DNA of 64,000 nt from Sedimentisphaerales bacterium (GTDB taxonomy: Bacteria > Planctomycetota > Phycisphaerae > Sedimentisphaerales > SM23-30). The notes beneath the pieces are model-generated. The model worked only from the letters and a program-made list of their open reading frames with translations. It did no database searches and was not told the DNA's origin. The stretch's first letter is position 1, and every line of letters starts with the position of its first letter. The stretch is taken from the NCBI GenBank assembly GCA_963663965.2, contig CAXXFK010000033.1, positions 160,001 through 224,000 on the forward strand. Direction: 5' to 3'. This document shows positions 25,515 to 40,171 of this stretch, piece by piece. Both the position numbers and the translations under genes were made by a program.

Positions 25515-26135
25515 TTAACAGGGCCGCCGTTTTAACCAGAATCCACCCAGGGCTAATAAACTCAAAGTGGTTGGTTCGGGCACTTCCACTACATTCACAT
25601 TCATCCAGACCGGGTCGAAGCCAAAGATATCGACTTTGTCGATGAACTGGATGGAAAAGGCTGTATCATCCGCCCACAGACCGGCGATGCCCTTAATGGC
25701 GCTCTGATTGTCATAGATCCAGTTCCAGCCGGGCTGACATTCAATCGTGATGTGCGGCGTGCCCTCGACCAACTGAAAACAACGAATCATATTAATCTGA
25801 CCGCCCTTAAAAACAGCAGTGGAATTATGATTCGTAGATAGCACATCAAGGGCGCCATGATAAAACACCAGGGAACTGTTGTGCCATAAATCCAAATCGG
25901 AAATACCGGAGTAATGCTGATTCAGGGGCAATGAGGTAGATAGGACTTCAATGCGACCGTAGTCAACAGTAATGCTATTCCCCCCCCCCCCATCCACAAT
26001 CAAGGGCGGATCATAATCAGTCCATATTACGGTGTTTTCATATTCTCCAGTGGTAATATAACCATCCAGATAGCCGGCATTACTCGTTGTTACAAATAAA
26101 CAAACACCCAATAGAATTAACCATAATCTTTTCAT
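25515..26135 (-). CDS. PEP-CTERM sorting-domain protein, array copy 1
   Basis: Signal peptide; VPEPTTLSLLALGGFWLKRR; G12 tract in frame; ATGA-coupled to the large gene. Confidence 0.9.
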   Translation of the reverse strand: MKRLWLILLGVCLFVTTSNAGYLDGYITTGEYENTVIWTDYDPPLIVDGGGGNSITVDYGRIEVLSTSLPLNQHYSGISDLDLWHNSSLVFYHGALDVLSTNHNSTAVFKGGQINMIRCFQLVEGTPHITIECQPGWNWIYDNQSAIKGIAGLWADDTAFSIQFIDKVDIFGFDPVWMNVNVVEVPEPTTLSLLALGGFWLKRRPC

Positions 26136-29100
26136 AATTCAGTTCTCCTTAAACTTTGCTCACTCGATTGTATCAAATCGCGAGGCTTCATGTCAAGATG
26201 GGACTGCAATACCTCGCGAATGTCCGATAAAATCGATTGCAGGAATTCCAAACCCTCAATTAACGCCTCGGCATTATCGGGTTCATTCTCTAATTCCGCT
26301 TCGATATAACCTATGATTTCAGAGGCATTGATAGCCAGCCGGGCCAATTCGGCACGGGATAATTCGGCATAGGGATTGACCGGGACATACGCATCGGCTT
26401 CAGAGATCAGGCTGGTTGATAATGTTTCGAACATGGGGACGGTCATGGCCACCATCTCGCCGCCGCCTGCCATAGCGCTGGAATAGGCCAGGTAATTCTC
26501 GCGCCAGCAGGCCTGCCACAGCCATTCATCACAGAACGCCGCCAAATCGGGTATATCAATAGCATACTGACTGGCGCCGGTCGCGTCCAGGTTACAGGCC
26601 GATTTCCATATGTCCGCAGCGTTTGGATTAACCAGGTTCGGGTCGGCCTGCCAGGCTGGATCGTTGGGATCGTGCCCCAGCCAGGCGGCGGATAAACCAT
26701 TGAATTCGTAGAGATTGATCACGCCGTCAACGTTCCAGTCCAGGTCGTTAAACAGATCATCCTCGGAGATATCATCATCGCAGGAATAAATCTCATCGGC
26801 CCCGATATCAATCCGGAGATCCAAAACCCGTTCCTCGTTATCCATATCAGCCTGATCGTCATAATTCAGGTATGGATTGCCCAGATCTTTACAGATGGAG
26901 TTATACGCCAGGTGGTAGTTCTCCGTATTGGGCGTGCCATTGGGATCGACGGTATAGGCAAAGCCGGGTTCCAGGCTGATATTCGTGCTGTTGACACTGT
27001 TGCAATCCTGAATACAGCAATAATGGGCGACCAGATCAGCATTCAAACCGGCTAACTGATTGCCGCCGCTGTTGTTATAGTAAATAATGCAGTTTTGAAT
27101 ATCCGGATAATCCAACTGATTGGGATCGTCGGCTATATTTCCATCATCGCTGAAAAAGATACCTGCCGACTTGTTATTGGAGATCGTGTTATTATAGATA
27201 ACCGGTGAATAAGTTGGATTAAAGATACTGATCCCTTGACGGCCTTCATTAGCCAGGTCGCTCTCAGAAATGATACTATTTTTAATCATTGGCGTTGAAC
27301 CATCGCAATAAATTCCATAACGCTGACTTCTCAAAATCCAGCAATTTTCTACTGTTAGGGCATAGTTCTCACCTACATGGTGAATTCCATCATAACCGTT
27401 GTTTTGAATTTTGCACCACTTAACAGCAACATCGCCATTGGAAGCATAAATTCCGTACGAGCTACTATTCTGAATCACACATTTATTAACCACAAAATCC
27501 ACACCCTCGCCATAAATACCATATTGTAAAGCCTTTGTAATCGTAAATCCCTCCAGCAGGGTCGTTTCGTCAATGGGGGAGTTGGGATCGGCCGAGACTT
27601 CATTGAGCATGGTCACGATGGTATCGCAATCGGGCGGCAGGTCATCATCCAGTTGCCCGGTCAGGATCGTCTCGTACCGCCGGGGATCGCGCTGCTCGAA
27701 CGCGCAGCCGCCGGTGGGGAACCCGCCATAAACCGAAATGCCTTCGGGCAGTTCAAAGCTGTCTTCGGCCCTATTACCCGGCAGGTAGGTTCCCTGCGCC
27801 ACATAGATGACATACGGTTCGGTACAAATCGCGTGGGCGGCCCGGTAAAGGGCCTTTTGCAATCCATCCGGTCCGTGATAGGCATCGGCCCAACTGGTCC
27901 CCGCATCCAGACCTGTCGCGTACCGGTCCACATAGATCTCCGTCGGCGTCTCGCCAAAACAGCAGACCTGCGTTTCGGCAACCGTCAGAGCTATTGCGCC
28001 GTCACGATCATCGATAACACCCCAGAGTTCAACCTGGTTGAGCAGAGTCAATCCCGAATCGGCCAGGGTGTTCACCACCACCTCCAACTGGACAGAACCG
28101 CTGTCGTTGGGATACATCGGCCCCAGTTCCCATAGATAAGTATGGGTATTGGGATCGTAGGCCGGATCGGCTTCGATAATATTCAAATTGGGATCCACGC
28201 TCGCGAAACCTTCCGGATAGGTCACTCCCCTGGGCAGAAAATCCAGCAGCCAGGCGTCATCCAGCGTCAGGCCGGTGGTATTGGTCCACTGGATGGTATA
28301 GGTGATGGTATCGCCCGGCTCGACACAATCGTTGGGATCGATATCGGTGGTCTTGACCAGGTCCATCTGAACCACCCCCCTGGGCGCGGCGATCGTCACG
28401 TTATGCTGGTCGTTATTCCCCAGTTCCCAGACTTCAAAATAATCGCCTGATATAGTAAATTTATTATGATAAGAATCATTCCATCCGGAAAGCGAGGTTG
28501 TTGTTATAGACTCGCCGGGCCGGTAGGGATCGTCATAAACTCCGCTGGCATAACCCGCTTCGGTGATCGAGGAGATCGAATTATTAATTGCACTAACTGA
28601 ACCAACACCCCAACTTGGGGGTAGCCAGTCAAAACAATTCATTTCATCTCCGCACACCAGCAAACCAGTCCCCACACCATCCAGAATATAGGCAATGGCC
28701 TGCCGCAACAGGATTCCGGCCGATCCGAGTTCCTGGACGGTATGAAGATCCAGATCATGACCGGTCAGAATAATCCGCCCGGTAATGCCCTCGGCAATGG
28801 CCGCAGGCAGGATGGGTTTGAAACCGAAAGAATGCCACCCGACAATGACGATGTCGTAGTCTGAGAAATCCACATTTTCCAAGGTATCCGGCGGCGATTT
28901 AACCGTGTATTGACTGGGGGCGATCCCCAATATGTTCATCGCCCCGATCAGGGCTGTCTCTTCACTTTCGACGATATAGAGTAAAAAGTGGTAGTCGCCG
29001 GGATTAAAACCCAGCAGGTTCGGATCGCAGGGCGCCAAATCTGGGATCACCAGCGGCAGACCGGCAGGATCGTTGCCGGCCAGAGCCGGGCCCTGCCAGG

Positions 29101-29158
29101 CGAATAAAATTCCGACACATCCGAGAAACCAGAAAACCATAGGCTTGATTCGTTGCAT
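26132..29158 (-). CDS. Large secreted protein: DUF11-like Ig domain, parallel beta-helix, dockerin/EF-hand-like C-terminus
   Basis: Signal peptide; LVKT...PGDTITYTI...LDFLPRGVTY (DUF11-like); IYVD...GTSWADAY...YVAQGTY beta-helix cap; YGIY repeats; DIGADE; DWNVDGVINLYEF. Confidence 0.8.
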   Translation of the reverse strand: MQRIKPMVFWFLGCVGILFAWQGPALAGNDPAGLPLVIPDLAPCDPNLLGFNPGDYHFLLYIVESEETALIGAMNILGIAPSQYTVKSPPDTLENVDFSDYDIVIVGWHSFGFKPILPAAIAEGITGRIILTGHDLDLHTVQELGSAGILLRQAIAYILDGVGTGLLVCGDEMNCFDWLPPSWGVGSVSAINNSISSITEAGYASGVYDDPYRPGESITTTSLSGWNDSYHNKFTISGDYFEVWELGNNDQHNVTIAAPRGVVQMDLVKTTDIDPNDCVEPGDTITYTIQWTNTTGLTLDDAWLLDFLPRGVTYPEGFASVDPNLNIIEADPAYDPNTHTYLWELGPMYPNDSGSVQLEVVVNTLADSGLTLLNQVELWGVIDDRDGAIALTVAETQVCCFGETPTEIYVDRYATGLDAGTSWADAYHGPDGLQKALYRAAHAICTEPYVIYVAQGTYLPGNRAEDSFELPEGISVYGGFPTGGCAFEQRDPRRYETILTGQLDDDLPPDCDTIVTMLNEVSADPNSPIDETTLLEGFTITKALQYGIYGEGVDFVVNKCVIQNSSSYGIYASNGDVAVKWCKIQNNGYDGIHHVGENYALTVENCWILRSQRYGIYCDGSTPMIKNSIISESDLANEGRQGISIFNPTYSPVIYNNTISNNKSAGIFFSDDGNIADDPNQLDYPDIQNCIIYYNNSGGNQLAGLNADLVAHYCCIQDCNSVNSTNISLEPGFAYTVDPNGTPNTENYHLAYNSICKDLGNPYLNYDDQADMDNEERVLDLRIDIGADEIYSCDDDISEDDLFNDLDWNVDGVINLYEFNGLSAAWLGHDPNDPAWQADPNLVNPNAADIWKSACNLDATGASQYAIDIPDLAAFCDEWLWQACWRENYLAYSSAMAGGGEMVAMTVPMFETLSTSLISEADAYVPVNPYAELSRAELARLAINASEIIGYIEAELENEPDNAEALIEGLEFLQSILSDIREVLQSHLDMKPRDLIQSSEQSLRRTEL

Positions 29159-34134: not shown

Positions 34135-34446
34135 TGCGGTATGATAAGAAATTGGGACCGTTTTGTCAAAGTAAGACTGTCGGTTTAAGCTATCTGTTCA
34201 AAATCAGGTAAGTGGGATTACCAGGAATTGAACTACCGGTGGGAAATTGGGTTTTTCTTGATAAGATAGCTGTTAAACCTTTATGATTACGATGTATAAG
34301 TGTCTATGGTGAATGGAATTGACTGGAATCAGATATTCGGTTAAAATCTCGCCCAATGGCAGAAGAAGTCGAATTAAAAATAGATGAATTTTCAGAGGTG
34401 CCCTTTAGCATGTGAAACTGCCTTACTAAGAAGGGAATGAGTTATC

Positions 34447-35427
34447 ATGATAGAGTTTATTCGATCCATAGCGGGCCCGGAATTTCTGGTCTATTATTTT
34501 ATTTATGCTTCCGTATGTATTGTCGTTTGTTCGGTAATTGCTTATCAGGATGGTTCCAATAACTATCCGTTGCCGAATATTAATGAGTTTACCCCGATAG
34601 CCATTGCCGTATTGCGCGGGGGTTGGGCTCTGGTAGTACGGATTATTTTATACGATTTGTGGCGAAAAGGAGCCTTGTCAATTATTGGTAATGGTAAAAA
34701 TCGCCGAATCAAGGTGGAATCCGGTATTGAACCTGCCGTGTTAGCTAATGAACCGGGCCAATTTGGTCCGGAAGGCTATTACCCGGAAAAGATTGTAATG
34801 CCATTTTTAGACGTATCTCAGGCACCGCGTGATCTGTTTATCAATGGTGACCTGAAGGAACGGATCCAGTTATACCTGACGCCGATTTATGAAAAATTAC
34901 AGGAATATCAGTTGTATCGTAAACCGGAAGATGGCTGGAAAGCCTGGGGGAACTATCTATTTTTTATGGCTGTCATGTTGACTCCGGGAATTATCAAGTT
35001 GCAACTTGGGATCAGCCGCCATAAACCGGTTATTTATCTGATCCTGTTGCTGGTTGCGGTTGTTATTGCGTTAACGATCATGGTCAGGCCATGGCGTAAA
35101 ACCACGGTGTTGGGACGCCGCTATCTCGATCAACTGGAACGGCATTTTAAATATCTGAAAGACGCCGATCCCGATTCTCATGAAATCTCATCGATCGGAT
35201 TGTTCTGGCCGATGGCCATCTTTGGTGTCGGCTATATGTCAACGATGATGAGAGATACCGAATTGGGAGACGCCCTGATCCCGTCCAGGCAAACCGCGAA
35301 TAGCTGGTTTAATGCCGGCTGTGGCAGTGGTTGCGGCAGCGGTTGCGGCAGCGGTTGCGGGAGTGGATGCGGGAGTGGTTGTGGCGGCGGCTGTGGTGGT
35401 GGATGCGGCGGATGCGGCGGTGACTGA
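34447..35427 (+). CDS. TIGR04222-like membrane protein with a Cys/Gly low-complexity C-terminal tail
   Basis: GPEFLVYY, IAVLRGG, IKLQLGISRHKPVIYL, TVLGRRYL; tail (GCGS)5(GCGG)2GCGGCGGD. Confidence 0.8.
   Translation: MIEFIRSIAGPEFLVYYFIYASVCIVVCSVIAYQDGSNNYPLPNINEFTPIAIAVLRGGWALVVRIILYDLWRKGALSIIGNGKNRRIKVESGIEPAVLANEPGQFGPEGYYPEKIVMPFLDVSQAPRDLFINGDLKERIQLYLTPIYEKLQEYQLYRKPEDGWKAWGNYLFFMAVMLTPGIIKLQLGISRHKPVIYLILLLVAVVIALTIMVRPWRKTTVLGRRYLDQLERHFKYLKDADPDSHEISSIGLFWPMAIFGVGYMSTMMRDTELGDALIPSRQTANSWFNAGCGSGCGSGCGSGCGSGCGSGCGGGCGGGCGGCGGD
35317..35424 (+). repeat. 12-bp degenerate coding repeat, 9 Cys
   Basis: GGN TGY GGN AGY/GGN units with mixed synonymous codons. Confidence 0.95.
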
Positions 35428-35441
35428 CAGCGATTGACTTC

Positions 35442-36476
35442 ATGATGGCAGATTCAGGTTATATTCCCAGAGGTTTTAATTTACAGTGGCATATCACAGA
35501 CCGCTGCAATCTGGCATGCAAACATTGTTATCAGGATACGGAGGTCAGCCATTGTCACTGGAACGAATTGAAAATCATCCTGGATAAATTTTGCCGGTTC
35601 ATTCACCGCTGGCGAACGCAGGCCGAACGACCGGTGAAGGCTCACATTACCCTGACCGGGGGCGAACCGCTGGTTCATGAATCGTTCTGGGATATACTTA
35701 ATGAATTTAAGACGCGGCAGAGGCAATTTACTTTTTCATTATTGACCAACGGTACATTGATCGATCTGGGTATAGCGGAAAAGCTGGCATATTTTGGCCC
35801 AACTTACGTACAGGTGAGTATGGATGGCAACCGGGAGACACACGAAGCCTTGCGCGGAAGAGGCGCTTTCGATCAGGCATTAAAGGGCATTAAGAACCTG
35901 CTAAAATACCAGTTGCGAACAACGATTTCATTTACCGCTCATCGACAGAATTATCATGAATTTGCGGCAGTTGCCAAAATTGGGCGAAAACTGGGAGTTG
36001 ACAGGATCTGGACCGATCGCTTTTTGCCGGCTGGACGAGGAGCGGATTTGGACCATGAGGTTCTGGATCGGGAAGAGACGCGCTGTTTTTATGAAATGGT
36101 CCGGAAGCAGCGCGATCGGATGCGCTGGATACCCGGGAGAAAGACCGTAATTTCCATGCACCGGGCTCTCCAGTTTCTGGCAGGAGGGGGCAGGCCTTAT
36201 CAATGTTGTGCAGCCGATTCATTATTAACGATAATGCCGGATGGTACTGTGTCTCCTTGCCGGCGATTGCCTATAACGTTGGGAAATGCGCTGATACAGG
36301 AATTGGATGAGATCTATTATGGCCATCCCATGGCGATTCGATTACGGGATTTCAGCGCTTCGGATACGGAATGCGGCCAGTGTGTCTACCGGAAATTATG
36401 CCGGGGCGGGTTACGATGTCTGGCTTATGCGGTCAATGGTGATCCATTCCGGCGTGATCCGGGGTGCTGGCTTTAA
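35442..36476 (+). CDS. Radical SAM/SPASM-domain protein
   Basis: CNLACKHC, TGGEP, VSMDG; SPASM CCAADSLLTIMPDGTVSPC...CGQCVYRKLCRGGLRC...DPGC. Confidence 0.92.
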   Translation: MMADSGYIPRGFNLQWHITDRCNLACKHCYQDTEVSHCHWNELKIILDKFCRFIHRWRTQAERPVKAHITLTGGEPLVHESFWDILNEFKTRQRQFTFSLLTNGTLIDLGIAEKLAYFGPTYVQVSMDGNRETHEALRGRGAFDQALKGIKNLLKYQLRTTISFTAHRQNYHEFAAVAKIGRKLGVDRIWTDRFLPAGRGADLDHEVLDREETRCFYEMVRKQRDRMRWIPGRKTVISMHRALQFLAGGGRPYQCCAADSLLTIMPDGTVSPCRRLPITLGNALIQELDEIYYGHPMAIRLRDFSASDTECGQCVYRKLCRGGLRCLAYAVNGDPFRRDPGCWL

Positions 36477-36683: not shown

Positions 36684-38447
36684 ATGCCAATTTTGCTAGA
36701 ACAGGAAACCCGGCCGATTCGTTATGGGGCTTATCCGGAATTGACGCCGACGGCCGTGATTGTGGGGTATCTGATTGGGATTCTAATCGCGATCAGTATC
36801 GGGTATGCGTGCCTGATACTGGGATTTTCAATTGAAGGCTCGGAACTGGCGGCAATTTTAGGTTTCGGGGTATTGCGGGGGATCTTACGACGGAGCAGCA
36901 TTATCGAGAATAACATTAACCAGACCATCGCCAGTGCGGTCAACGGGGCGTCCTCGGGTATGATGTTTTCGGTACCGGCGCTGTTTATTCTGGGGTATAC
37001 CCAGGCAGATTTCAGTCCGCCACTGATGGTGTTTGCCTGTATTGCCGGTGGGATATTGGGGATTGCGTTTATTATCCCGTTACGCAAGCAGATGATCGAT
37101 TATGAGCGGCTTGCCTATCCGGGCGGTCAGGCGGTGGCGACGGTGTTGAAATCGCCTGGCGCCGGGATTCACAAGGCGATGCTGCTGGTTGGCGGGATAG
37201 CTTTAAGTGGTATCGTACATTTTCTGGCGAATCATTTTCATTTTGAGTATTTCGATCTGGGGGCTAAAGTGGGGATGCCGGAGTATATGAATACCGTCGT
37301 CTACGTGTCGCTGATGACGGTGGGGGTTGGTTTTATCGCCGGCAAGGGTGGATTTTCATTTATCGTCGGTGGTTTCACCTGTTACTGGGTATTGGCGCCG
37401 ATATTGGCTCAACAAGGTTTGCTTCCCAGTCCGGAAGAACTGACTGAGATGAAAGAAGCATTACCGGATTATTTGCGCAGTTCCCTGTTTAAGCCGGTGG
37501 GGATTGGCATGCTGGTAGGGGGGGCGGTAACCGGTATTGTATTGGCGTTGCCGTTGATTGCCAGTGCGATCAAGAGTATGCAGGATGCCGCTAAAAGCGG
37601 TAAGGCGATTTCTCAGGATGAGATGCCGGTGAAGTTGCTGTATATCGGGATTATTGGCGCGGCTGTTTTGTTATTTGTGATTGCGAAGAATGCCGCGGTT
37701 GAAGTGGGATACGGGCGCGCTCTGGTCATGGCATTATTGGGCACGTTGTGGATCTGGATTGCCGGAGTCGTATTATCTGAATGTGTCGGTCGCACCAACT
37801 GGTCGCCGTTGAGTGGTATGACCTTGATTGCGGTGACAATTTTAATTTTTATTGCCAGAGACATTGGCGATAAGCCGGCGATTATCGCTTCGGTATTTGT
37901 TGGGGCGGCGGCCTGTGTGGCGATGTCGCAGGCGACCGATTTGATGCTGGATCTAAAGACGGGATATATGGTAGGCGCAACCCCGAAAAAACAGCAGATA
38001 GGGCAGTTTCTGGCCACCTGGCTGGGGCCGATTGTTGTCATGAGTCTGATATTGATTTTACATCAAAGTACGGGTTTGGGCAGTAAACGATTGCCGGCGC
38101 CCCAGGGACAGGCCCTGGCAGGTATGATCCAGGGGATATTGGGCGACGACGTGCCAGTGTTGAAGTATATTGCCGGGGCAGTGCTGGGTATTATGTTAAG
38201 CTCATGCGGTATCGGCGGATTGGGAATCCTGGTGGGATTGGGTTTTTACCTGCCGTTTGATGTGGTGATTGCCTATACCGTCGGTATGGCGCTGCGCATG
38301 CTGATTGATAAATTTAAGGGAACCCACTTTGCGCACGACGTCGGCATACCCGTTGCTGCGGGCTTTATTGTCGGTGAAGCGCTGGTAGGCGTTGGTTTTG
38401 CGCTTTACAATGTGTTTTCAGGAATGATGAATCATAGCGTAAGTTAA
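36684..38447 (+). CDS. OPT/YSL oligopeptide transporter
   Basis: PELT, SIIENNINQTIASA, IPLRKQMI, YPGG, DLKTGYMVGATPKKQQIGQ, PAPQ; AGGAG RBS. Confidence 0.9.
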   Translation: MPILLEQETRPIRYGAYPELTPTAVIVGYLIGILIAISIGYACLILGFSIEGSELAAILGFGVLRGILRRSSIIENNINQTIASAVNGASSGMMFSVPALFILGYTQADFSPPLMVFACIAGGILGIAFIIPLRKQMIDYERLAYPGGQAVATVLKSPGAGIHKAMLLVGGIALSGIVHFLANHFHFEYFDLGAKVGMPEYMNTVVYVSLMTVGVGFIAGKGGFSFIVGGFTCYWVLAPILAQQGLLPSPEELTEMKEALPDYLRSSLFKPVGIGMLVGGAVTGIVLALPLIASAIKSMQDAAKSGKAISQDEMPVKLLYIGIIGAAVLLFVIAKNAAVEVGYGRALVMALLGTLWIWIAGVVLSECVGRTNWSPLSGMTLIAVTILIFIARDIGDKPAIIASVFVGAAACVAMSQATDLMLDLKTGYMVGATPKKQQIGQFLATWLGPIVVMSLILILHQSTGLGSKRLPAPQGQALAGMIQGILGDDVPVLKYIAGAVLGIMLSSCGIGGLGILVGLGFYLPFDVVIAYTVGMALRMLIDKFKGTHFAHDVGIPVAAGFIVGEALVGVGFALYNVFSGMMNHSVS

Positions 38448-38502
38448 GAAGACCTGATAAGCGGCATGCATTAATATGAATTATTAGACAGGATAGGATA
38501 TC

Positions 38503-39027
38503 ATGGTTATTATTGGCTATCTTTTATTTGTTGTCAGTTTTCTGGCCGGGGCTTTGGTGGCGGTGCAGGATAAGACCCAGGTGAACTGGTGGTATTTTGG
38601 CGGGTGTGTGGCCGTGGGGGCGTTGGGGGTGGTGTTGATTCGACTGGCGCATCGGGACCGGCATCACAGTGACGAAGCCCTGGCGGGAAATTTTCAATCC
38701 GTTAGAGAGGCTATTGAGAAGATCGTGGCCAATATGAAGACGTTGGGCGCTGAGGTTTTAACACTCAGTCCTTACGAAGTGCATGAGCGGATCGATGACC
38801 TGTTTGCCCGGGATATCGAGACTTTTGTCGAGGCCCGTAAGAGTATCGCGCGTAAGTATTCCCTGCAAGTTTATTCTGAGGTCATGAATCATTTTGCCGC
38901 GGCCGAGCGTTATTTGAACCGGGTCTGGTCCGCCTCGGTGGATGGCTATATCGATGAGGTACGCGATTATACCCAAAAAGCGTCCGATCAGTTTGAAGAG
39001 ACCCGGCGTATTATCGAGGGTTTATAA
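38503..39027 (+). CDS. Hypothetical membrane protein (2 TM plus helical domain)
   Basis: 174-aa ORF with RBS, co-oriented with the OPT gene. Confidence 0.7.
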   Translation: MVIIGYLLFVVSFLAGALVAVQDKTQVNWWYFGGCVAVGALGVVLIRLAHRDRHHSDEALAGNFQSVREAIEKIVANMKTLGAEVLTLSPYEVHERIDDLFARDIETFVEARKSIARKYSLQVYSEVMNHFAAAERYLNRVWSASVDGYIDEVRDYTQKASDQFEETRRIIEGL

Positions 39028-39430: not shown

Positions 39431-40171
39431 ATGAGAAAAAATGTGTTGTTACTGGTTGCGTGTTTACTGATGAGCGCTCAATTCGTTTCTGCCAATGTTA
39501 CCGAATGGAGTGGTTCTGAGTCGGGAAAGATCAAGGCCAAATGGAAGACCCTTTTTGGCAAGAATAAAAGCGCCAGTACTGATGCCGAAATATCGATGAA
39601 TATCGCCTATCAGGATGGTTCGGCATTCGATCTGGATTATATCAATAAGAATTGGTATGGGGATGAAGACAGCATCCTTCCTGTTCTGCATCTTGAGCAA
39701 AACAAATATATTGATGTGACCATTGGCTGGTCCGGCTTGTCGCCCGATCTGGCTAACGCGTTAAGATTTGGGGCGGACTTTATGGTCTGGGAAGGCGAAG
39801 GGACCGAAGCAGCCAGTGACGCCATCTATCAATGGTCCAATTACATCTGCGATTCAGGCAGTATGACATTCAGTATGATGTATTCAGCGGATTGTCAGGG
39901 TGATAATTTACTGATTATTCTGGATGGCAATATTTTTACCTGTCCGTTCAATTATGTCGATGCATGTTATTTTGATATCTTTGCCCAGGCGAACGCGACC
40001 GGCAATGATAACAACAATGGAAAGCTTGGCATAGGCGCCCGGTTGGATTTTTGTTGCCAGAATCCTTTGCCGGGTGATCCTCCGGTTAATAATCCGGTTC
40101 CGGCTCCCGGCGCATTGGTATTGAGCTCGCTGGGTACAGCTGTTGTCGGATGGATCCGTCGGAAAAAATAA
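39431..40171 (+). CDS. PEP-CTERM-type (VPAPGA) surface protein
   Basis: Signal peptide; C-terminal VPAPGALVLSSLGTAVVGWIRRKK; AGGAG RBS; TTGACA at 39214. Confidence 0.85.
   Translation: MRKNVLLLVACLLMSAQFVSANVTEWSGSESGKIKAKWKTLFGKNKSASTDAEISMNIAYQDGSAFDLDYINKNWYGDEDSILPVLHLEQNKYIDVTIGWSGLSPDLANALRFGADFMVWEGEGTEAASDAIYQWSNYICDSGSMTFSMMYSADCQGDNLLIILDGNIFTCPFNYVDACYFDIFAQANATGNDNNNGKLGIGARLDFCCQNPLPGDPPVNNPVPAPGALVLSSLGTAVVGWIRRKK

Follow-up and report, generated by a model that had tools for sequence, protein, structure and literature searches.

In a 64,000-nucleotide stretch of DNA from a Sedimentisphaerales bacterium (assembly GCA_963663965.2, contig CAXXFK010000033.1, positions 160,001 to 224,000; hereafter the window), we identified a gene for a TIGR04222 membrane protein that ends in a tail of cysteine, glycine and serine (34447-35427, 326 amino acids), followed 14 nt downstream on the same strand by a gene for a radical S-adenosylmethionine (SAM)/SPASM enzyme (35442-36476, 344 amino acids). 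Comparison across genomes showed that the enzyme belongs to a distinct radical SAM/SPASM clade that lacks a recognition element (RRE) of the kind used for peptides that are made by ribosomes and modified after translation (RiPPs), occurs in many bacterial phyla and some archaea, and nearly always stands beside a membrane-anchored Cys-tailed protein. The pairing is a real, conserved system, known from its genes. The tail is likely to be the substrate: as judged from the sequences, the enzyme would bind the free C-terminal tail, abstract hydrogen and oxidise the cysteines in place.

A protein search with the enzyme gave 1917 matches, the best 120 of which had 43-51% identity. A locus search with the single sequence gave no matches, and loci were retrieved by using an alignment of these 120 proteins on DNA. 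The best 80 were taken from each set, out of 460 genome loci and 490 metagenome loci, and with this locus and L012 they made 162 loci; 13 with fewer than 290 aligned residues were left out (4 of them with a tail gene), and a tree was built from 149. The results showed a clade of 94 loci (support 0.996), which contains this locus and one duplicated locus, as against 55 others, and set it apart from AhbC/D-like and other SPASM enzymes. Tail genes were called by a strict rule (at least 2 Cys and at least 14 Gly, Ser or Cys among the last 20 residues, and a Cys within the last 8), which picks 3 of the 86,579 stop-to-stop frames of this genome, namely the tail gene, NifB and one 57-residue frame. 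A nearby tail gene was found at 78 of the 94 clade loci and at 1 of the 55 outgroup loci. The rule was relaxed alike for both groups after four TPM carriers ending in GGSSSF were seen, and the counts became 82/94 versus 1/55. Among loci flanked by 1.5 kb or more on each side they were 55/63 versus 0/21, and after clustering at 50% identity, under the strict rule, 16/20 versus 1/12. Of the 78 strict-rule loci, 56 had the tail gene directly upstream of the enzyme and on its strand, and 3 had it convergent. Tail-positive hosts include Anaerolineales, Thiotrichaceae, Syntrophobacter, Nitrosomonadales, Limnobaculum, Spirochaetota, Verrucomicrobiota, Armatimonadetes, Thermodesulfovibrio, gut Bacilli, Ruminococcus and an archaeon; most of these we take to be anaerobic or micro-oxic, with exceptions. 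The first-pass annotation of the window had proposed the tail as the substrate and had named, among the outcomes that would speak against this, homologues that usually lack a Cys-rich neighbour and clustering with NirJ/Ahb enzymes. The counts and the separate clade show neither, and the tail stands as the best candidate substrate.

Several loci of the tree were of note in their own right. Outside the clade, at L174:3-1103, a 9-Cys CGG-tailed membrane protein directly precedes a divergent SPASM enzyme, a possible independent origin of the pairing. Near the base of the clade, an outgroup enzyme is followed by a small CHSS-repeat open reading frame (ORF; L138:6108-6392) and preceded by His-Xaa-Ser-type radical SAM neighbours, as read by eye. 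At L141:6272-6427 and at L137, outgroup SPASM enzymes are followed by a 51-residue ORF with a Cys-rich end (CxxCxxCxxC), a conventional-looking RiPP cassette. Within the clade, two enzyme genes are split into two frames (L068:5001-6015 and L111:244-1262) by frameshift or assembly error.

The linkage was also examined from the tail side. In gut Bacilli (the order of G510, 101 genomes), a DUF2207_C search gave 124 matches, and we read 70 stretches, comprising the 30 best and 40 picked from lower rows, some of them for resembling the match pattern of a Cys-tailed gene. We recognised 59 Gly-rich tails in 58 of the 70 stretches, and the other 12 had neither a recognised tail nor the enzyme. The enzyme was directly downstream of all three Cys-tailed DUF2207 genes, one of which lies on the same contig as L044, and of none of the 56 Cys-free ones; a single genome (G569) carries one gene of each kind, the Cys-tailed one with the enzyme. 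The Cys-free tails read GGGFSSGGGF or GGGSSGGGS, whereas the Cys tails read GGGCSSCGGGCSSCGGGGSW, indicating that Cys stands where Phe often stands. Among gut Bacilli DUF2207 loci (L255-L330), periodic Cys-free GGGF/GGSF tails were seen to end in an aromatic residue or Arg, with the Cys tails in the same register. In the phylum of G301, 3 of the 201 genomes had TIGR04222, in every case with the enzyme no more than 0.5 kb away (one seed, one repeating L035 and one new). The class of G511 (300 genomes) gave six matches: the new L285 and the seed had tail and enzyme, L287 and L288 had just one Cys and lacked the enzyme within 1.5 kb, and L289 and L290 were Cys-free.

The membrane protein had been named as TIGR04222-like from its translation, and the family match confirmed this (77 bits, cut-off 43); its DUF2207_C match was weak and under the cut-off. 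It comprises a first transmembrane helix (TM1) at about residues 13-33, a soluble domain, a TM2/TM3 hairpin at about 168-213, a Lys/Arg-rich stretch, short helices and a disordered tail. The AlphaFold2 model had a mean predicted local distance difference score of 82.7, with residues 282-326 mostly below 50, and a Foldseek search with it gave no match at E <= 0.001. Residues 291-326 read (GCGS)5(GCGG)3CGGD, the same string as (GCGS)5(GCGG)2GCGGCGGD in the first-pass annotation, with nine Cys spanning residues 292-323. Its codons were found to be mixed, as claimed there: 7 of the 8 twelve-base units are distinct, and the five GCGS units differ from one another by synonymous changes only. Since units 2 and 3 have the same DNA sequence, one recent duplication is possible. 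In an alignment of 27 TIGR04222 proteins, 24 adjoining the enzyme and 3 orphans, the terminal GGCGGCG columns were invariant or nearly so. A Cys/Gly C-terminal stretch similar to the tail was also seen in NifB of this genome; a nif cluster lies outside the window (C24, about 97200-105100, minus strand) and holds nifD/K/E/N-like genes, nifB, a ferredoxin gene and a homocitrate synthase-like gene, as read by eye.

Three hydrophobic helices stand out clearly in the same 27 proteins, and the stretch of 27 residues that follows TM3 holds on average 7.0 Lys/Arg versus 2.3 Asp/Glu. In the type-I carriers at L041, L072, L080 and L083, a signal peptide and an outer domain are followed by one helix, basic residues and the tail. 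By the positive-inside rule, the charge bias after TM3 and in the type-I carriers would place the tail in the cytoplasm, the compartment of the enzyme. The AxFG segment further along is less marked (mean hydropathy 1.2) and, in L042 and L065, not hydrophobic; it was modelled as short broken helices. Some TIGR04222 members may have a fourth membrane crossing.

The proteins that carry such tails are diverse. Among 60 of 84 tail ORFs scanned for families, 28 were TIGR04222 (one with TPR repeats), 21 DUF2207, 1 TPM and 1 zinc-ribbon, and 9 had no family; three further TPM carriers were found beyond these 60, and the carrier at L127 is a single hydrophobic helix plus tail of 50 amino acids. TIGR04222 and DUF2207_C are distant relatives, but the TPM and single-helix carriers are unrelated to them, so there is no shared body to serve as leader. 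The earlier idea that the body of the membrane protein acts as the leader is therefore unlikely.

The tails beside the clade consist of Gly/Ser with 2-9 Cys. In 81 tails with 425 Cys, Gly or Ser stood at position -1 in 421 cases, at +1 in 418 and at +2 in 412, and nearly always at both i-2 and i+2. The 344 intervals between Cys ranged from 2 to 12, with 3 in 187, 4 in 95 and other values in 62 (5-12 in 60), a pattern at odds with the ladder of one Cys every four residues that had been envisaged. No i+4 residue exists for 32 of the 425 Cys, the tails hold no Asp or Glu acceptors, and in 32 of the 81 tails the last Cys has just 1-3 residues after it. Selenocysteine read-through was rejected, as the stops of the 84 tail genes are TGA in 38, TAA in 37 and TAG in 9, and no tail continues past TGA. 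It seems that the short tail itself, and not the protein bearing it, is recognised by the enzyme.

The enzyme matched Radical_SAM (PF04055, 76.6 bits) and SPASM (PF13186, 28.9 bits, cut-off 21.5), in agreement with the first reading of a complete radical SAM/SPASM gene 14 bp downstream. The CxxxCxxC motif at residues 22/26/29 and all seven SPASM Cys were invariant in 116 aligned sequences, while W190, D192, R241, F245 and Y253 are diagnostic of the clade; we infer one auxiliary cluster with three protein ligands. None of the 25 best NCBIfam models (of 76 matched) reached its cut-off, and the TIGR04085 label given earlier, not being among these 25, was not confirmed. The best model was SbtM (TIGR04082; 158.6 bits, cut-off 350; positions 197-515 of 516), and the NirJ/AhbC/AhbD equivalog models scored 116-140 bits against cut-offs of 500-650. 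The ESM Atlas gave generic radical SAM names only. The proximal active-site residues, from a motif alignment, are Y,T,T,S,R,R in the enzyme, Y,T,G,S,R,K in SbtM and F,F,T,S,H,Q in CteB, the only thioether synthase available for this comparison, whose residues come from the text of PMC10288494. A complex prediction of enzyme and membrane protein scored 0.28 against a mark of 0.32.

Only 21 residues precede the first Cys, leaving no room for an RRE, as had been noted. No RRE family recurs near the enzyme in ORFs of at least 70 amino acids at the 94 clade loci, and the sole PqqD match of this genome is a 755-residue frame on another contig. The earlier reading that there is no separate small precursor also held, as no conserved small precursor family stands beside the enzyme among ORFs of that size at these loci, shorter ORFs being screened for the tail only. 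The genome contains no close paralogue of the enzyme and, at 94.6% completeness, a single TIGR04222 gene.

On this basis, the two genes would form a substrate-enzyme cassette in which the carrier body is interchangeable. The enzyme would recognise the tail without a leader, through the small residues flanking each Cys and the free C-terminus; SAM would be cleaved, hydrogen abstracted from the tail and the Cys oxidised one after another. The product would be retained on the membrane protein, because no protease or exporter recurs nearby: no such family specific to the clade was found within 5 kb of the enzyme. As to its nature, each Cys may close onto the preceding Gly/Ser carbonyl to give a 5-thiooxazole (-4 Da). 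By analogy with known enzymes we tentatively rank this per-Cys product ahead of a thioether. It is favoured because a per-residue reaction fits the variable spacing and the Cys near the terminus, because Gly or Ser almost always precedes the Cys while Asp/Glu acceptors, and for some Cys an i+4 residue, are lacking, because SbtM is the best NCBIfam model and the proximal residues are nearer to SbtM than to CteB, and because the other proposed partner of these tails is an oxidative enzyme dependent on multinuclear non-haem iron (MNIO; DUF692, PF05114) close to the bufferin and oxazolin enzymes. Antoine et al. 2025 (PMC12452194) reported this closeness and proposed that MNIO enzymes act on TIGR04222 tails. 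Conversion of Cys to 5-thiooxazole is described as a prevalent MNIO reaction, with a product at -4 Da that still reacts with iodoacetamide (bioRxiv 10.64898/2026.06.05.730506), and SbtM is reported to yield a -4 H thiooxazole by radical chemistry (PMC11002830, PMC12538549). The first-pass annotation had taken a thioether as the default product, but a 5-thiooxazole is at least as likely; since the latter is -4 Da and iodoacetamide-reactive, the suggested readout of -2 Da per Cys and loss of iodoacetamide reactivity would misread it.

The clade would then be an O2-independent alternative to the O2-using MNIO enzymes proposed for the same tails. The modified tail may act as an arm for metal (Cu) binding or aromatic interaction on envelope proteins of the LemA/TPM/DUF2207 type, which in their ordinary tails bear Phe at the Cys sites; copper binding is suggested by analogy only. 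Genes for LemA (10 loci), a nucleotidyltransferase-like protein (9) and a zinc-ribbon membrane protein (5) recur near the enzyme, which points to envelope modules with a metal-binding or aromatic version of a Gly-rich tail. A wider proposal, which we regard as speculative and improbable, is that the tail is a portable, leader-free C-terminal tag on which three unrelated metalloproteins, namely O2-dependent MNIO enzymes, the O2-independent radical SAM clade and the His-motif domain PF27765 (often fused to its substrate), converge to make a row of aromatic 5-thiooxazoles with thiol groups in the places of Phe in ordinary tails, a metal-switchable arm at the inner face of the membrane.

A number of observations weigh against modification of the tail by this enzyme, or against this product. 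In 301 genomes of this organism's class, TIGR04222 was above its cut-off in 12 and the enzyme clade was present in two (this genome and G273, adjacent in both), so that 10 of the 12 have Cys tails with neither clade enzyme nor MNIO. Twelve of the 94 clade loci have no tail gene: four are incomplete at their ends, L043 has its tailed TIGR04222 gene on another contig, and none was found at the other seven (L032, L073, L078, L079, L089, L093 and L095). Cys-repeat patterns gave no C-terminal tail in the genomes of L093, L091, L089, L075 and L078, a weak check that missed the tails of L091 and L075. The lead of SbtM is small (158.6 versus 148 and 140 bits for the next models), SbtM is not the sister group of the clade (26% identity, versus 25% for Ahb-like enzymes), and the PCRR loop is common to uncharacterised outgroups without tails. 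Some clade hosts are not strict anaerobes, and PMC12452194 places TIGR04222 tails in the periplasm. Cys-to-Gly sactionines (StsA; PMC10288494) and thioethers on whole proteins (PMC13692751) are also described.

Other candidate partners were considered for the tails without this enzyme. In 9 of the 10 orphan-tail genomes (L002-L010), a 150-residue PF27765/UCP032817-like domain is fused to, or lies just upstream of, the Cys-tailed TIGR04222 protein. Its invariant residues are Asp70, His74, His76, His97 and His98, and 106 of the 120 best longer homologues end in a Cys/Gly tail. The PF27765 profile matched 9 of 330 loci examined, none of them an enzyme locus, and a profile search found no such domain in this genome. 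Its confident model gave no useful match to solved folds (best Z 4.0 in a wide fold search), and a literature search found no description of UCP032817. The domain may be a third, self-acting modifier, or a binding domain. MNIO occurred in 31 of the 301 class genomes (G283 included), in none of the 12 with TIGR04222, and with 0 matches (PF05114) in this genome. Strict genome-level exclusion between MNIO and the clade enzyme did not hold, as MNIO occurs elsewhere in 3 of 10 enzyme-plus-tail genomes; together with the hosts that are not strict anaerobes, this makes the idea of an anaerobic substitute only a tendency. No MNIO-adjacent TIGR04222 gene was present in the genomes sampled here, so that pairing rests on PMC12452194.

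The alternative that fares best differs in product only: the sulfur of each Cys would be joined to the alpha-carbon of a Gly/Ser close by, so that the tail would bear a row of small sactionine-like rings. The StsA links cited above would be its precedent, Gly/Ser nearly always flanks Cys at i-2 and i+2, and the enzyme has a seven-Cys SPASM domain with a probable three-ligand auxiliary cluster, as does CrpC, which forms thioethers on a whole protein (PMC13692751). SkfB and CteB are the nearest solved relatives by sequence, a weak ranking (E 1e-24 to 1e-21) in which the score of PqqE is similar. Spacing from 2 to 12 and a last Cys so close to the end of many tails fit small rings poorly, the proximal residues differ from those of CteB at 4 of 6 positions, and the enzyme lacks an RRE, whereas CrpC, QhpD and StsB use one (PMC13692751, PMC10288494). 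We consider a thioether rather unlikely.

It is less probable again that the tail is never covalently changed, and is a metal or Fe-S arm that docks the enzyme at the membrane or supplies it with metal, sulfur or clusters, the enzyme's substrate being a lipid, a cofactor or some other small molecule. The orphan tails and the NifB stretch of this genome are consistent with such an arm, as are the scores of the NirJ/Ahb cofactor-enzyme models near that of SbtM. However, no biosynthetic gene, including any haem-biosynthesis context, recurs near the enzyme at the 94 loci, where only the LemA, nucleotidyltransferase-like and zinc-ribbon genes do; the gut Bacilli DUF2207 tails have Cys only where the enzyme adjoins; and 9 of the 10 orphan tails have PF27765 as another candidate partner. 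Other chemistry on the tail, again a variant of the main reading, is a still poorer candidate, whether conversion of Cys to formylglycine (as by anaerobic sulfatase maturases, anSMEs), desulfurisation, or epimerisation or cleavage at Gly/Ser. The anSME is a SPASM enzyme without an RRE whose targets are Cys in whole proteins. It is among the PDB matches of the enzyme, and hydrogen abstraction from the Cys beta-carbon would be a first step in common with the thiooxazole route, but there is no sulfatase-like motif or fold, and the repeated Cys suggest a metal-binding or structural product rather than a single catalytic aldehyde. That the two genes adjoin by chance, or descend together as one mobile cassette without being linked in function, is very improbable: the GC content of the pair (0.48-0.50, below the 0.51-0.57 of its flanks) and its presence in 2 of 301 class genomes fit transfer as a unit, but hitch-hiking does not explain adjacency kept while gene order, strand and carrier family change, and the clade-versus-outgroup counts and the DUF2207 paralogue control already largely refute it.

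The features of the locus are listed in Table 1. A promoter-consensus search gave 9 sites, versus 4.5 +/- 2.3 in shuffles, and the two matches listed lie in the divergent gap in front of the pair.

Table 1. Features of the gene pair and its surroundings (window positions, except for the last row, which is at locus L005)
Feature	Position	Strand	Basis or remark
Sigma-70-like promoter matches, two	34258-34287 and 34319-34347	+	10/12 each; consensus matches only
Purine-rich Shine-Dalgarno-like stretch	34428..34436	+	10 nt 5' of ATG; read from sequence
TIGR04222 membrane protein, 326 aa	34447..35427	+	TIGR04222, 77 bits
Cys/Gly/Ser tail, 9 Cys, proposed substrate	35317..35424	+	Translation
Radical SAM/SPASM enzyme without RRE (344 aa), proposed maturase of the tail	35442..36476	+	Domain matches, clade
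CxxxCxxC (C22, C26, C29), SAM-binding cluster motif	35505..35528	+	Invariant in 116 aligned sequences
Seven-Cys SPASM domain (C255, C273, C311, C314, C320, C326, C342) and PCRR loop	36204..36467	+	Alignment
OPT-family transporter	36684..38447	+	PF03169; 207 nt 3' of enzyme gene
PF27765/UCP032817-like domain, example	L005:2272-2772	-	Sequence

The OPT transporter was rejected as part of the system, with a homologue near the enzyme in only one other of the 94 loci (L043), and is probably a local neighbour outside it. That close homologue lies in a planctomycete at L043:872-2722. In the window, the transporter gene is followed by one for a 174-residue membrane protein (36684-39027 for both). RlmL and other window neighbours were likewise rejected. 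PEP-CTERM-like exported proteins and a 1008-residue secreted repeat protein are encoded near the cassette (25515-29158 on the minus strand and 39431-40171 on the plus strand; motifs by eye).

If the proposed reaction is correct, RiPP-type radical chemistry would reach integral membrane proteins, with recognition that is free of both leader and RRE, and a widespread unnamed radical SAM family would be defined. The pairing accounts for part of a gap in PMC12452194, where 490 of 1372 TIGR04222 genomes, a third, are without MNIO (Table 3 of that paper), and it opens a direct route to explaining why DUF2207 and TPM proteins have Gly-rich tails. The 36-residue tail, or the natural 50-residue carrier, is cheap to work with, and a transferable tag converted to metal-binding heterocycles would be useful in protein engineering.

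Radical SAM enzymes acting on Cys repeats of whole proteins are already known, as are TIGR04222 tails as proposed MNIO substrates. Our literature search, which covered few subscription papers, found no description or curated model of the enzyme clade or of its pairing with membrane-protein tails, and no radical SAM link to TIGR04222 was found in the parts of the PMC12452194 text and supplement searched. The TIGR04222-MNIO system of that paper has the same membrane family and Ser/Gly-rich Cys tail, but its partner is an MNIO and its tail is placed in the periplasm, whereas here the partner is a radical SAM/SPASM enzyme and the charge bias suggests a cytoplasmic tail. LemA/TPM/DUF2207 envelope modules with Gly-rich tails include the families of the carriers here, and LemA is near 10 clade loci, but their ordinary tails lack Cys and have no such enzyme next to them, and the Cys-free paralogues end in GGGF/GGGS repeats. 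In a strict-sense RiPP the leader is removed and the core released by a protease and exporter; none is clade-specific within 5 kb here, although such proteins may act in trans. Sactipeptide and ranthipeptide synthases use small leader-core peptides, an RRE, a protease and export genes, and none of their models among the 25 best for our enzyme reaches its cut-off; SkfB, CteB, PapB, StsB and GggB share with the proposal the radical SAM/SPASM fold and a Cys-rich substrate, and Cys-to-Gly links are known in this group. CrpC/CrpA (TIGR04463; PMC13692751) and QhpD/QhpC resemble the proposed cassette in that a SPASM enzyme with seven SPASM Cys acts on C-terminal Cys repeats of a whole protein, but they possess an RRE and an N-terminal leader, and their substrates are soluble with acceptors of the CxxD/Q type, in contrast to the membrane anchor, Gly/Ser-only tail and lack of an RRE here. 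SbtM/SbtA (TIGR04082; PMC11002830, PMC12538549) is a system in which a SPASM enzyme, with a CR[RK] loop as here, converts Cys or selenocysteine to a thio(seleno)oxazole, and in the two SbtA-like precursors examined Cys or selenocysteine follows Gly or Ser, as in the tails. SbtM differs from our enzyme, which is not its sister, in about 140-210 extra N-terminal residues and in a small, signal-peptide-like precursor with selenocysteine, whereas the tail described here uses cysteine and is carried by a membrane protein.

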